Shown here: positions 915 to 11,918 of the stretch, piece by piece
Layout of the letters: every line of letters begins with the position of its first letter
Position numbering within the stretch: the stretch's first letter is position 1
Translations under genes and position numbers: made by a program
The notes under the pieces: model-generated
Seen by the model: the letters and a program-made list of their open reading frames with translations, nothing else
Told to the model about the DNA's origin: nothing
Databases searched by the model: none
Virus record (IMG/VR): IMGVR_UViG_2671180299_000005
Strand: one strand, 5' to 3'
DNA from: a virus
Lineage: Duplodnaviria > Heunggongvirae > Uroviricota > Caudoviricetes
DNA: 12,093 bases

Positions 915-1070
915 TCACCCACCTGAATTTCTTTCCAGCCAGCGACGCGCTCCAGATTCGGTTTTAAACGTTTTGCTTTTGGTATACGTCATCGCGGTGA
1001 ACGTACCGTCCTGGTTGGGGAACACGCCACATACCAGAGATTCGCTGTTGCCAAGATTGATAGTATCCAT
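915..1070 (-). CDS. small early-left operon protein, 51 aa (YdfA/DUF1391-like by position and length)
   Basis: The track ORF 915-1151(-) is 78 aa, but the internal ATG at 1070-1068 has a GAGG with a 5-nt spacer and gives 51 aa (MDTINLGNSE...). It is the first gene downstream of the OL-like promoter at 1252-1280. Confidence 0.5.
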   Translation of the reverse strand: MDTINLGNSESLVCGVFPNQDGTFTAMTYTKSKTFKTESGARRWLERNSGG

Positions 1071-1251
1071 GCTGACCTCATTTCCCCTTAACGCCGGGGT
1101 AGCGGAACAAAAACCTGCTGCATAGTTATTAAAGTTGAACCCTGCCGTCATGTTCTTACGCCTCGGGCTGGCTACTTAACCCCTGACCACTGCCTGGTAA
1201 CTCGAGGTATTGCCCTGTATTGTGTGGGACGGGATGGGTTGGTATGGGAAA

Positions 1252-1299
1252 ACTATAGGAAATGCCTAATTACTTGTCAATAGGCTATGCCTAATAATT
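1252..1299 (-). promoter_or_regulatory. OL-like operator/promoter module downstream of the repressor gene, driving the minus-strand early-left operon
   Basis: On the minus strand: -35 TTGACA (plus-strand coordinates 1280-1275), 17-bp spacer, -10 TATAGT (1257-1252). It is overlapped by the dyad ATAGGC-TAT-GCCTAAT (1280-1295) and TAGGA-AAT-GCCTAAT (1256-1270). 1264-1294 is a near reverse complement of the OR region 1921-1952. Confidence 0.55.
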
Positions 1300-1388
1300 T
1301 GGGCGCGACCTAATAGGTGATGGTTTGTGGGAGAGGTAGTAGGAGTTAACTAACGGGAACTAGGAATTTCCCGTCGGACCATATAAGT

Positions 1389-1865
1389 TTAAGTTCCTGT
1401 CTTGGTGATGTTCTGGCTTTTCCGTTTTGATTCTTGATTTTTCAGATAGTTAGCTACCTTCATTTCCATTGCGGCAATGTAGGCGCGAACGTCATGATCA
1501 ACCCAACTAGGCTCCGTAGCATTTCCAGATAAGAGGAAAGCCACAATTGCTCTTTTTTCATCAGAGGCGGCTTGATAAAGGCTGTTTATGTCTAAAAGTT
1601 CACTTTTTGTATCTGAAGTGGATGGGGTTGGTATGGGGTATTCGTTAAGCCCCCAATGCTCTGGACCAACCACATCAGAAAAGAAACGCCATAGTTCTGG
1701 AAGTTTGTCTTTACTTATCGAACCTTTCTTAATCCAGTCATGGATTGATGGTGGTTGGACTTTGAAATGACGTGCGATTTCCGCCTTTGATTTGACGGCT
1801 CCTGATGCAATTTTTTTGTTAATGGCCTGCTCTATCGCTCGGCCTAAGTCTTTACCACTAAGCAT
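1389..1865 (-). CDS. racR: Rac-prophage-type repressor RacR, 158 aa, HTH (cI-like role)
   Basis: ORF-track ORF (MLSGKDLGRAIEQAINKK...). The sequence and length match my recollection of E. coli RacR. It is divergent from ydaS/ydaT with operators in the shared intergenic region. AGGAGA lies upstream of the ATG on the minus strand. Confidence 0.8.
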   Translation of the reverse strand: MLSGKDLGRAIEQAINKKIASGAVKSKAEIARHFKVQPPSIHDWIKKGSISKDKLPELWRFFSDVVGPEHWGLNEYPIPTPSTSDTKSELLDINSLYQAASDEKRAIVAFLLSGNATEPSWVDHDVRAYIAAMEMKVANYLKNQESKRKSQNITKTGT

Positions 1866-1892
1866 TGCTTAATAGTCTCCTATGCGCATCGC

Positions 1893-1962
1893 GTTAGGCA
1901 ATCCCTACTCTCGATGTGTTAGGCATAGCCTATTGACAATTGTATTAGGCTAAGCCTAATAT
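1893..1962 (+). promoter_or_regulatory. OR-like divergent operator/promoter region between racR and ydaS
   Basis: Three dyad sites with TTAGGC/GCCTAA half-sites: ATTAGGC-TAA-GCCTAAT (1944-1960, perfect 7-3-7), TTAGGC-ATA-GCCTAT (1919-1933) and a weaker TTAGGC-AAT-CCCTAC (1894-1908), centres about 25 bp apart. The ydaS promoter has -35 TTGACA (1933-1938), an 18-bp spacer and -10 TAATAT (1957-1962), which the perfect site overlaps. Confidence 0.6.
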
Positions 1963-1989: not shown

Positions 1990-2313
1990 ATGAAAAAAGA
2001 TAACTATTCATTCAAACGAGCTTGTGCTGTTGTCGGTGGGCAATCAGCAATGGCTAGGCTTTTAGGTGTATCTCCTCCAAGCGTAAATCAATGGATCAAA
2101 GGTGTACGTCAGTTGCCTGCTGAGAGATGTCCTGCGATTGAACGAGCAACAAAAGGTGGTGTCCTGTGTGAAGAACTTCGTCCTGATGTTGATTGGACAT
2201 ACTTACGACGCTCGTCATGTTATTCGCAGAATATGTCGATGAAGCAACCAAATGACGAAAACGATCATACCCGAAGCATCAAGAGGCAAATGATTCATGA
2301 AAATCAAACATGA
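1990..2313 (+). CDS. ydaS: Cro-like HTH protein YdaS (reported toxic when derepressed)
   Basis: ORF track gives 1969-2313 with a GTG start. The ATG at 1990 (MKKDNYSFKRA...) has GGAG 9 nt upstream and is preferred. The HTH region is GQSAMARLLGVSPPSVNQWIKG. It is the first gene of the rightward operon facing racR. Confidence 0.75.
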   Translation: MKKDNYSFKRACAVVGGQSAMARLLGVSPPSVNQWIKGVRQLPAERCPAIERATKGGVLCEELRPDVDWTYLRRSSCYSQNMSMKQPNDENDHTRSIKRQMIHENQT

Positions 2314-2722
2314 GCACATCCGCATGGCGATGAATGCCTGGGCATACCCTGATGGTGAGAAAGTTCCTGCAGCTGAAATAGCCCGGACTTATTTCGAACT
2401 GGGGATGACGTTCCCTGAACTGTACGACGACAGCCATCCGGAAGCCCTGGCCCGTAATACACAGAAAATTTTCCGTTGGCTGGATAAAGACACCCCTGAT
2501 GCTGTTGAAAAAATTCAGGCTCTGTTACCGGCGATCGAAAAGGCAATGCCGCCTCTGCTGGTGGCCCGTATGCGCAGCCACAGTTCTGAATATTACCGTG
2601 AGATCGTCGAACGGAGGGATCGGCTGGTGAAGGATGTCGATGATTTTGTTGCGTCAGCGGTTGTTTTGTATGACCAGATGAATCGCGGCGGCCCGGCAGG
2701 GAATGCTGTGGTGATGCACTAA
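2297..2722 (+). CDS. ydaT: YdaT-family protein, 141 aa (CII-like position)
   Basis: ORF-track ORF. It overlaps the ydaS 3' end by 17 nt, with AGAGG upstream. Length and sequence are consistent with my recollection of Rac YdaT. Confidence 0.75.
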   Translation: MKIKHEHIRMAMNAWAYPDGEKVPAAEIARTYFELGMTFPELYDDSHPEALARNTQKIFRWLDKDTPDAVEKIQALLPAIEKAMPPLLVARMRSHSSEYYREIVERRDRLVKDVDDFVASAVVLYDQMNRGGPAGNAVVMH

Positions 2723-6530: not shown

Positions 6531-6746
6531 GGGTAAAAACGGTTTGCGGTAAAGCGAGAGTTAAGTAGAATTGCTGCGGGTGCTTGAGGCTGTCTGCCTC
6601 GGGCATGCCACCGTAAGGCAGACAGAGAAAAGCCCCAGTTAACATTACGCGTCCTGCAAGACGCCTAACATTAATCTGAGGCCAATTTCATGCTAGACAT
6701 ATGTAGGTTAGCCTCTTACGCGCCGAAAGGCAAGGAGAAGCAGGCT

Positions 6747-6902
6747 ATGAAGCAGCAAAAGGCGATGTTAATCGCCCTGATCGTCATCTGTTTAACCGTC
6801 ATAGTGACGGCACTGGTAACGAGGAAAGACCTCTGCGAGGTACGAATCCGAACCGGCCAGACGGAGGTCGCTGTCTTCACAGCTTACGAACCTGAGGAGT
6901 AA
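6747..6902 (+). CDS. hokD: Hok/Gef-family type I toxin, 51 aa (HokD/RelF-like)
   Basis: MKQQKAMLIALIVICLTVIVTALVTRKDLCEVRIRTGQTEVAVFTAYEPEE matches my recollection of HokD/RelF. AAGGAG lies 9 nt upstream. The track ORF 6690-6902 is an in-frame upstream extension (mok-like start with GAGG 8 nt upstream). The mRNA 5' segment 6578-6589 is complementary to the 3' segment 6952-6964, as in hok tac/fbi pairing. Confidence 0.85.
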   Translation: MKQQKAMLIALIVICLTVIVTALVTRKDLCEVRIRTGQTEVAVFTAYEPEE

Positions 6903-7147: not shown

Positions 7148-7507
7148 ATGGCACTCACTGAATTCGGTAAGGCCGTTAGAAAAGCGAGGATCGATACTGA
7201 CAGTACTCTTCTGACTATGTCTCAAGAACTGGGCACTACGCCAGCGTTTCTTAGCGGTTTAGAAACTGGTAGCAAAAAAATACCTCTGAAGTGGGTTAAG
7301 AAGATTGATTCTTACTTCAAGGCCAAAGGTGTAGAAATTGAAGGGTTACAGGAGTTAGCGGCAGTTGCGAATGACTCAGTTCCAGTAAACGGTTTGTCTC
7401 AGCAACAGAAAATGCTTGTAGCGGGATTCGCTAAGTCGCAGTTTACGCCGGAACAGCTAAAGAGTTTTGCAGATTTATTGCAAAAGATTAATAACAATGA
7501 GGGGTAA
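7148..7507 (+). CDS. XRE-family helix-turn-helix transcriptional regulator, 119 aa
   Basis: ORF-track ORF. GAGGA lies 7 nt upstream. The HTH is FGKAVRKARIDTDSTLLTMSQELGTTPAFLSGLETG. Hand-counted 60-mers give roughly 33-43% G+C against about 57% for one 60-mer in DUF968 (9001-9060). Confidence 0.8.
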   Translation: MALTEFGKAVRKARIDTDSTLLTMSQELGTTPAFLSGLETGSKKIPLKWVKKIDSYFKAKGVEIEGLQELAAVANDSVPVNGLSQQQKMLVAGFAKSQFTPEQLKSFADLLQKINNNEG

Positions 7508-7509
7508 TT

Positions 7510-7986
7510 ATGTATCAAATGAGAGGTAACAGGGTGTCACCGATGCAAGAAGAAGAAATAGCCTACAGAGCTATAAACTTCTGTAATGCTATTGGTCTTA
7601 CAGCCTCAAAGCGCAAAAGAAAGCGTTATGATATGTTCTTTGAAAGCCTGTCAATTTATGGGGTTACTCTTGACGTCAGGACCGACAAAGAGTGGGAGGC
7701 TCTGACGTATGATCTAACTATCGGACATTGTGACCCCGCTTCTCTAACAATTACGGTTCCCAATAAAATATATGTGAATGCTTGCCTTGGGGAAGAGCAT
7801 GCACTTGCTGTTATCTTCCACGAGCTAGGTCATTTGCTTCTTGGACACAAAGCAGTTTTACACTTTTCAGTTAAAGAACCTACTCGTATTGAGGATGCAG
7901 AATGGCAGGCAGATACATTTGCGGATATCGTACTGGAAACAATTGGCGTGAGAACACAACAGATGTCGTTCGATTTTTATATGTAA
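7510..7986 (+). CDS. ImmA/IrrE-family (COG2856, M78-like) zinc metallopeptidase, 158 aa
   Basis: ORF-track ORF. It starts 2 nt after the XRE stop, so the two are probably co-translated. The HExxH motif is in VIFHELGHLLLGH. The gene order (HTH then peptidase) matches ImmR/ImmA and CapH/CapP pairs. Confidence 0.8.
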   Translation: MYQMRGNRVSPMQEEEIAYRAINFCNAIGLTASKRKRKRYDMFFESLSIYGVTLDVRTDKEWEALTYDLTIGHCDPASLTITVPNKIYVNACLGEEHALAVIFHELGHLLLGHKAVLHFSVKEPTRIEDAEWQADTFADIVLETIGVRTQQMSFDFYM

Positions 7987-7987
7987 A

Positions 7988-11717: not shown

Positions 11718-11833
11718 TTTTTTTGTTTGCTGTTTATTAAAAACACTTCTGCATGGTGAATCCCCCTGTGCGGTGGGGCAATCAGCAAGAAGGAATATGG
11801 GGTAATCGCGGATTCAGGTGCTGATACTGAATT

Positions 11834-11854
11834 CACCGGGAGGCACCCGGCACC
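11834..11854 (+). repeat. 21-bp element CACCGGGAGGCACCCGGCACC, copy 2 of the inverted pair (partner at 1-21), dyad CCGGG-N5-CCCGG
   Basis: Read directly. GGAGG at 11840-11844 lies 11 nt upstream of an ATG at 11855. Confidence 0.6.
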
Positions 11855-11918
11855 ATGCTTTGCCACAAAAGTGTTATTTCTGTTTTTCTCAAACTATCAT
11901 CGTTATCCCTTTATTTTC

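Follow-up and report, generated by a model that had tools for sequence, protein, structure and literature searches.

Organization of the racR region

We analyzed a 12,093-nt stretch of DNA from a virus of the class Caudoviricetes (IMG/VR record IMGVR_UViG_2671180299_000005; this whole stretch is hereafter called the window) with regard to the surroundings of racR (1389..1865, minus strand; RefSeq annotation), which encodes a 158-amino-acid repressor. A lambdoid prophage adjoining tRNA-Ser/mtfA in Escherichia coli strain A1 is 100% identical to the window, and gene names were taken from the RefSeq annotation of this identical genome together with Pfam. To the right of racR, the plus strand encodes a ydaS-like Cro analogue (1990..2313; annotation; Pfam YdaS_toxin, 3.8e-30, and P22_Cro, 1e-08), the CII analogue ydaT (2297..2722; Pfam and annotation; PMC9986795), and, from 2745, O-like and DnaC-like replication genes (Pfam: an HTH_36 protein and an IstB/DnaC-like ATPase). 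A divergent cro-like gene at the head of the rightward operon, followed by cII-like and replication genes, is the gene order of lambdoid phages. To the left, on the minus strand, lie a DUF1391 gene (ydaF/ydfA-like, 915..1070; RefSeq annotation and Pfam), ydfB (922-785) and ydfC (755-537; both RefSeq annotation), and the small RNA DicF (194-143; annotation; Rfam, 76.7 bits at a gathering score of 48), while dicB and ydfD, just outside its left end, as well as genes for an exonuclease, a DUF4224 protein, and a frameshifted integrase are annotated leftward beyond the window. The identities of racR, the ydaS-like gene, and ydaT, as well as the presence of DicF in the left operon, had been proposed in a first-pass annotation of the bare sequence and agree with the RefSeq, Pfam, and Rfam assignments.

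A repeat finder revealed a perfect inverted repeat around racR (arms 1274-1294 and 1919-1939; 21 nt, 100% complementary), which grows to 1264-1294 versus 1919-1950 if one 1-nt indel is allowed. The inverted match reported in the first-pass annotation is therefore real, but its right arm had been placed 2 nt off (1921-1952). Each 21-nt arm is made up of a complete 15-bp dyad (TTAGGCATAGCCTAT) joined to TTGACA; a further dyad lies on each side of racR, 25-26 bp from the first and overlapping a -10 hexamer. Read leftward from 1294, the left cassette is TTAGGCATAGCCTAT-TGACA-AGTAA-TTAGGCATTTCCTAT-AGT; read rightward from 1919, the right cassette is TTAGGCATAGCCTAT-TGACA-ATTGTA-TTAGGCTAAGCCTAA-TAT. 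A promoter scan of positions 1-2400 returned only three promoter-like sites, the top two being those of the cassettes: TTGACA-17-TATAGT on the minus strand (1280..1252, 11/12 consensus positions) and TTGACA-18-TAATAT on the plus strand (1933..1962, 10/12).

The dyad itself is concentrated at this locus. When the whole window was searched for TAGGC-N3-GCCTA with up to 2 mismatches, 7 of the 8 matches were found to flank racR (1256, 1281, 1300, 1859, 1895, 1920, and 1946). Dyads with at most 1 mismatch number 5, compared to 0.19 expected, and 3 dyad pairs are spaced by 24-26 bp, whereas none of 2,000 Markov-1 randomized windows contained any such pair. The first-pass annotation had described dyads in opposite orientation on both sides of racR and near-consensus promoters pointing away from it, both of which these scans recovered; it had also allowed for a similarity confined to the -35 elements, which is not what was found, as the repeat takes in a whole dyad and is accompanied by a second one on each side. 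The dyad-promoter cassettes on both sides of racR are thus near-identical, point outward, and follow the layout of phage lambda: operator clusters with one common recognition sequence on either side of the repressor gene, each with an early promoter that, by its sequence, is directed away from it.

Following the lambda nomenclature, the left and right operators are designated OL and OR, and the corresponding promoters PL and PR. Within the RacR operator family of 15-bp dyads, OL1 (ATAGGAAATGCCTAA, leftward TTAGGCATTTCCTAT; 1255..1269) has 1 mismatch to TAGGC-N3-GCCTA, and it overlaps the PL -10 hexamer by 3 nt, the end of the dyad serving as the start of the hexamer. OL2 (ATAGGCTATGCCTAA, leftward TTAGGCATAGCCTAT; 1280..1294; 0 mismatches) abuts the PL -35 hexamer, with one T in common, and is the reverse complement of OR2. 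PL is a predicted sigma-70 promoter (1252..1280, minus strand; -35 TTGACA at 1280-1275, 17-nt spacer, -10 TATAGT at 1257-1252) with a predicted start near 1245, aimed at DUF1391-ydfB-ydfC-DicF-dicB. As judged from these sequence features, the left cassette is the equivalent of OL/PL. A doubtful third left site (TTGGGCGCGACCTAA, 1299..1313, 2 mismatches) lies 19 bp from OL2. It was rejected as a conserved third left operator, given this 19-bp spacing, the retention of only one half (TTAGGT), in Escherichia only, and its absence from other genera. It is overlapped by a palindrome (ACCTAATAGGT, 1308-1318) with half-site-like arms in outward (reverse) arrangement, the TTAGGT arm of which is conserved within Escherichia.

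On the right, PR, the ydaS promoter (1933..1962, plus strand; TTGACA, 18-nt spacer, TAATAT), is bracketed by OR2 (TTAGGCATAGCCTAT, 1919..1933, 0 mismatches), which abuts its -35 hexamer, and OR1 (TTAGGCTAAGCCTAA, 1945..1959), a perfect dyad within a 19-nt palindrome (1943-1961) that overlaps its -10 hexamer. OR3 (TTAGGCAATCCCTAC, 1894..1908, 1 mismatch) covers the racR promoter region, and OR4 (1858..1872, 2 mismatches), a weak dyad, has its centre at the A of the racR ATG and corresponds to the published O3 (PMC9638921). What has already been published for K-12 as the ydaS promoter/operator is this right cassette. An isolated TTAGGC half-site inside racR (1842..1847, minus strand) has likewise been described for K-12 (PMC9638921). 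Measured centre to centre, OL2 and OR2 are separated by 639 bp.

Conservation of OL, racR, and OR

The Rac prophage of K-12 carries the same dyad pair with TTGACA-17-TATAGT between racR and ydaG; a 746-bp block is 86% identical in DNA between the window and K-12, with 92% identity of the RacR protein. Among 5,426 complete E. coli genomes, the 746-bp OL-racR-OR block was matched in 1,086, at least 80% of it being covered in every one of them, and 459 complete E. coli genomes harbor the window-type module allele at 95% identity or more. A 2.8-kb query including the Qin-like left arm with DicF was covered to at least 80% in at least 193 genomes, the left arms being mosaic. Furthermore, two isolated phages, vB_EcoS-683R6 and Klebsiella phage KpF5, possess the OL pair (in the latter after a DUF450 gene), as do 78/78 IMG/VR E. 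coli loci with enough flank, in which the sequence farther to the left belongs to several unrelated classes; as the IMG/VR scan yielded only near-identical E. coli alleles, it serves for allele counts and not for diversity. OL, racR, and OR are inherited as one block, as expected of an immunity region.

Within E. coli, variation spares the functional positions. In a set of 26 distinct alleles of OL and 37 of OR, only 2 of the 32 half-site and hexamer positions vary on each side, compared to 45 (OL) and 39 (OR) of 58 other positions, although these 58-column flank counts are inflated by unaligned indels and the contrast is smaller within the 44-nt core (2/32 versus about 7/12). The changes within this core fall into the N3 spacers and the 5-nt linker behind the -35 hexamer, while the OL2 half-sites and the PL hexamers are invariant among the 26 E. 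coli alleles. Co-variation of OL and OR half-sites in diverged homologues was discarded as a line of evidence, the DNA-binding domain and the half-site being too conserved to vary; conservation relative to diverged flanks was used in its place.

For a more distant survey, an alignment of RacR homologues was used to scan genomes, one per species, and yielded 29 loci, 27 of them non-redundant. Upstream of the repressor gene, dyad centres fall at -60, -35, and 0 from the ATG in nearly all loci; OR3 is found at -35/-36 in all homologous loci and OR4 at offset 0 in nearly all. Escherichia has four OR dyads (centres at about -87, -61, -36, and 0 from the racR ATG), other genera three. Downstream of the repressor gene, a dyad pair (at most 1 mismatch, spaced by 24-26 bp) was identified in 14/27 non-redundant loci, compared to 0/5,400 randomized downstream sequences. 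These loci include Enterobacterales (Mixta, Morganella, Proteus, and Erwinia) as well as Betaproteobacteria (Achromobacter, Burkholderia, Pigmentiphaga, Sphaerotilus, and Comamonas). All paired loci follow the common plan aTTAGGC-N3-GCCTA-TTGACA-N5-TTAGGC-N3-GCCTAaTAT, always directed outward from the repressor gene, even though their flanks cannot be aligned. The PL hexamers are found in the same register at 15 distant loci, and OL1 is kept in K-12 and at every OL locus compared. A comparison of operators across Rac-like loci, by which the first-pass annotation had suggested that its reading could be judged, thus speaks for it in K-12, in the IMG/VR loci, and at distant loci with a RacR-type domain alike. 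The RacR immunity type therefore appears, from this sequence comparison, to possess a defined and conserved OL/PL, the one aspect that seems to be new.

These data bear on the view that the inverted repeat is a relic of a recent duplication or gene conversion, or a chance likeness of two strong promoters, and that the left side plays no part in regulation. The perfect identity over 21 nt is what such a relic would look like, and the PR-proximal dyad in Escherichia has the ATAG spacer typical of OL2 in place of the AATT found at OR2 in other genera, which suggests a past exchange between the two sides. However, the left pair is present in distant genera whose OL and OR differ from each other, it did not arise in any of the random controls, and substitutions avoid the functional positions. 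The comparative data thus already contradict this explanation, which we regard as extremely unlikely. The ancestral OR2 with its AATT-type spacer is still present at -36 in Escherichia, having lost its TTGACA, which suggests the copying of an OL-type cassette into OR in this genus. Such a copying event would also explain the perfect 21-nt inverted repeat.

The distance between the repressor gene and OL differs between loci. Where the repressor gene is the last gene, the OL pair lies 68-141 bp past its stop codon; where extra genes are inserted, in the position of lambda rexAB, it lies 0.7-1.9 kb past it. Such inserts were observed in KpF5 (L033, 3634-4803, encoding a 389-amino-acid DUF450 protein), and at three further loci (L018, 2990-4781; L013, 3628-4902; L019, 3686-4544); open reading frames of 376, 143, and 74 amino acids at a Burkholderia locus are one example. 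The inserted genes are candidates for accessory or defence genes expressed in the lysogen.

In RacR itself, residues 1-73, which form the helix-turn-helix N-terminal domain, are almost invariant across homologues, and the C-terminal domain is not an S24 peptidase (RacR has no Pfam match). A structure search for solved structures of RacR relatives returned none below E = 0.6. Homologues with the RacR-type N-terminal domain match Peptidase_S24 at 1e-14 to 1e-24, and this combination with an S24 (LexA/CI-type) domain was observed in Achromobacter, Pigmentiphaga, Comamonas, Aeromonas, an Azoarcus metagenome-assembled genome, Herbaspirillum, and Pectobacterium (loci L013, L015, L016, L019, L021, L022, L026, and L031; proteins P0101, P0102, and P0114). 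The same OR dyads are present at all of these loci, and the OL pair also at L013, L015, L016, L019, and L026. Since S24-bearing homologues in Achromobacter, Pigmentiphaga, and Comamonas come with the same OL/OR cassettes, the predicted operator code is common to cleavable and non-cleavable repressors, and domain swapping would alter the mode of induction while leaving operator specificity unchanged.

Published evidence on RacR and transcription of the left operon

In K-12, the right element has been studied experimentally. The start of the ydaS promoter (TTGACA/TAATAT) was determined by primer extension, and a -10 mutation abolishes its activity; purified RacR gives a footprint over the racR-ydaS intergenic region in which the ydaS promoter region is covered before the rest, and the consensus at OR was given as (T/A)TAGGC-n3-GCCTA(T/A), one of the operators having its centre at the racR ATG (PMC9638921). 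The same study found the main racR transcript to be leaderless and reported that YdaS does not repress racR. Binding of RacR at OR was also observed in electrophoretic mobility shift assays (PMC5700373), and RacR behaves as an octamer in size-exclusion chromatography, which the authors credit to four inverted repeats upstream of racR (PMC11014345). The DNA substrates of PMC9638921 and PMC11014345 span -186 to +85 around the racR start and do not cover the region downstream of racR. In the RacR literature that could be searched, neither an OL, operators downstream of racR, nor looping is described or mentioned, and one RacR paper calls the RacR regulon, including "the racR-proximal operons ydaFG", uncharacterized.

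The leftward genes of K-12 do respond to RacR levels. When racR was lowered by an intruding C protein, ydaF, ydaG, ydaE, as well as racC went up approximately 40-fold, and kilR, ydaC, and ralA more than 70-fold (PMC6765115). The induced genes are those downstream of the predicted PL, and their induction fits direct repression by RacR without proving it. Control of kil by the repressor may reportedly have been described already by Conter et al. in 1996 for Rac kil.

Another possibility is that the left dyads act as operators but have no functional promoter, i.e., as an auxiliary site, a roadblock ending racR transcripts, or mainly a YdaS site, and that the leftward genes are transcribed only by read-through from racR. 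Rho-dependent termination within racR has indeed been invoked for the silencing of kil (PMC4150792), and an intrinsic terminator is found just ahead of the OL module at several distant loci. The latter cuts both ways, as a terminator upstream of the module argues for a restart of transcription there. Moreover, in loci from two classes of proteobacteria, TTGACA and a -10 hexamer of the form TAnnnT, spaced by 17-18 nt, keep their register relative to the dyads, and the PL hexamers do not vary among the E. coli alleles, which indicates selection on a promoter and not on binding sites alone. We therefore consider left operators devoid of a promoter very improbable, if somewhat less so than a mere relic.

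Proposed function of the two cassettes

The region most likely represents the immunity region of a lambdoid prophage of RacR immunity type, in which RacR silences both early operons via OL and OR; the concept is the textbook lambdoid layout. RacR dimers would recognize the 15-bp dyad TTAGGC-N3-GCCTAA through the N-terminal helix-turn-helix, with each early promoter embedded in a cassette of roughly 44 bp, [dyad]TGACA-N5/6-[dyad]. In this arrangement, the upstream dyad and the -35 hexamer have one T in common, at the end of the former and the beginning of the latter, and the downstream dyad runs into the -10 hexamer by three bases, its last and the hexamer's first. Since the dyads share bases with both hexamers, two dimers bound with their centres 25-26 bp apart would cover them and exclude RNA polymerase. 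At PR, OR1 and OR2 would silence ydaS (cro), ydaT (cII), and the replication genes, while OR3 and the ATG-centred OR4, lying over the racR promoter, would mediate autoregulation. At PL, OL2 and OL1, inverted and 639 bp away, would silence DUF1391-ydfB-ydfC-DicF-dicB-ydfD-exo-xis-int. Judged by their match to the consensus, OR1, with its perfect 19-nt palindrome, and OL2 should be the strongest sites, whereas OL1 would be weakened by the need to encode TATAGT.

Given the near-identical, outward-pointing cassettes on both sides of racR, it is very probable that a single repressor keeps both early operons silent, among them the one encoding the cell-division inhibitors DicF and DicB. The first-pass annotation had already proposed probable control of the ydaS/ydaT operon and the early-left operon by one repressor, and this proposal gains support from the common dyad, footprinted at OR (PMC9638921), its overlap with both promoters, its conservation, the co-inheritance of OL with racR and OR in 1,086 genomes, and the derepression of leftward genes (PMC6765115). 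Its likening of the locus to OL/OR holds for the layout, but neither for the number of sites, which is not the 3+3 of lambda, nor for the repressor, which lacks an S24 domain.

Several points weigh against RacR control of both operons. OL1 is off consensus at two positions, which we attribute to its having to encode TATAGT as well. No downstream pair was found within the fetched flank at 13/27 distant loci, and the conservation contrast narrows within the 44-nt core, as stated above. An experimental report of RacR at the left module, or of a transcription start site there, was not found in the searchable literature. Furthermore, the induction of leftward genes in K-12 could be partly indirect, via YdaS/YdaT, excision, or read-through from racR, and the Rho-dependent terminator within racR offers another route to the silencing of kil. 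Lastly, as regards looping, the OL-OR distances show no helical phasing, ranging from 591 to 641 bp in the short class and up to approximately 2.5 kb elsewhere. Occupancy of OL by RacR, activity of PL, and looping are what we infer from the arrangement as a whole.

Looping between OL and OR is plausible for RacR, given an octameric repressor, four strong dimer sites, and a distance of 639 bp between OL2 and OR2: one octamer could bridge OL1, OL2, OR1, and OR2 in a loop of approximately 640 bp, as lambda CI does. Helical phasing of the OL-OR distance was set aside as a sign of looping, as the distances of 591-641 bp leave no common remainder and are uninformative; the sequence thus speaks neither for nor against a loop in this respect. 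Alternatively, the left module may be a real RacR-repressed promoter with OL and OR acting independently, the octamer serving only the four adjacent OR dyads, in keeping with the published model, without any long-range loop. The four dyads at the Escherichia OR and the unphased distances of about 0.6 to 2.5 kb would suit this arrangement. In contrast, most non-Escherichia loci have only three OR dyads and still keep a two-dyad OL, and a separation of approximately 640 bp is favorable for looping from the general mechanics of DNA. Moreover, the octamers of lambda CI and of PaaR2 are tied to OL-OR bridging (PMC8630535). Independent operators are thus a serious possibility, albeit one we hold to be somewhat improbable on balance.

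In a broader form of the looping proposal, the 44-bp cassette together with the RacR N-terminal domain may constitute an ancient portable immunity unit, used twice per phage in Gamma- and Betaproteobacteria and combined with either an SOS-cleavable S24 or a RacR-type oligomerization domain. In the RacR type, the octamer would then bridge OL1-OL2 and OR1-OR2 in an unusually short loop of approximately 0.6 kb, and this bridging, instead of four OR sites, would be the reason for the octamer. We put this forward tentatively, with slightly less than even confidence. If true, the loop would couple the silencing of DicF/DicB or KilR to that of ydaS and ydaT, and the arrangement suggests that the octamer can be read differently, as two dimers at OL and two at OR. 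RacR would gain a second direct target, which would provide a simple explanation of why ydaG, ydaF, kilR, and further leftward genes of Rac rise 40- to 70-fold upon a drop in RacR. This would also place a copy of DicF/DicB under RacR, and not DicA, in a widespread prophage type, which is relevant to DicF expression in pathogenic E. coli.

Relation to known immunity regions

By its architecture, the region would work like the switches of lambda, CP-933P, and Qin, although RacR itself falls outside the S24 (CI/LexA) family. Compared to the lambda layout (OL/PL - rexBA - cI - OR/PRM/PR - cro), the similarities comprise a repressor gene between two operator clusters of one recognition sequence, each over an outward early promoter, a divergent cro-like gene, sites 24-26 bp apart, a leaderless repressor mRNA, a repressor octamer, and, in some RacR relatives, extra genes between repressor and OL. 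Unlike lambda CI, RacR has no S24 self-cleavage domain; instead of 3+3 sites, OL has two good dyads plus the doubtful one and OR has four; the operators are approximately 0.64 kb apart instead of about 2.4 kb; the repressor start codon forms the centre of one OR dyad; YdaS reportedly does not repress racR (PMC9638921); and looping is known for RacR only as a proposal.

The prophage CP-933P of E. coli O157:H7 (PaaR2/YdaS/YdaT) likewise has a short, non-cleavable, octameric repressor and a ydaS-ydaT right arm (PMC8630535). Its leftward promoter PL933P with OL1-3 has the hexamers of PR and repeats the same operators, a plan analogous to the left module described here, and has been shown to be repressed by PaaR2 and YdaS (PMC8630535). 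However, its operators are GTTTAGTAA-type palindromes, a toxin-antitoxin pair lies between repressor and OL, and the immunity specificity is a different one. In the Qin prophage (dicA-dicC/dicBp), an early-left operon of ydfA/DUF1391-ydfB-ydfC-dicF-dicB is controlled by a PL-type promoter and the immunity repressor (PMC10448788), which is the P22 C2-like DicA with its own operators, whereas in the window the same cargo lies under RacR dyads. The locus thus has a Qin-like left operon and yet falls outside the Qin (DicA) immunity group, its repressor being RacR and its operators RacR dyads. Analogous OL/PL elements have been tested experimentally for CP-933P (PMC8630535) and Qin dicBp (PMC10448788). 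The K-12 Rac operators O1-O3 (PMC9638921; four inverted repeats in PMC11014345) have the same consensus and the same PR; there, the right element has been studied, while the OL pair downstream of racR lies outside the DNA used.

Additional observations

The predicted PL leader (1071-1245, minus strand) is C-rich and G-poor at its 5' end, and approximately 70 nt of it (roughly 1090-1165) are nearly invariant between the window and K-12, exceeding racR in conservation. The leader was also checked for known RNA families and for stable folding, both of which were rejected: an Rfam scan gave no match at E<=1, and in a shuffle test its fold was not better than that of shuffled sequences (z = +1.49). 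The conserved stretch could represent a Rho-loading site or another leader element. Just past the racR stop codon, a hairpin with a poor T-tail (1353-1375; ACGGGAA...TTCCCGT on the minus strand) may mark the 3' end of the racR transcript; in its K-12 form, one G-C pair is replaced by A-T, a compensatory change.

A Rac-type immunity region was also detected on a 5.2-kb contig binned as "Candidatus Nanosynbacter" (L005, JARKOR010000130.1). Its RacR is 92% identical to the query, and its dyads agree in sequence and spacing with the ones at L003 and L004, two E. coli loci; its assignment is almost certainly a binning contamination.

Elsewhere in the window, a helix-turn-helix gene is followed by a gene for an ImmA/IrrE-family metallopeptidase (7149-7987), forming a second repressor/anti-repressor-like pair. 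Furthermore, Rfam matches correspond to the sok antitoxin RNA (6578-6752, 114 bits), adjoining hokD, and to the small RNA STnc100 (11722-11894, 101 bits).

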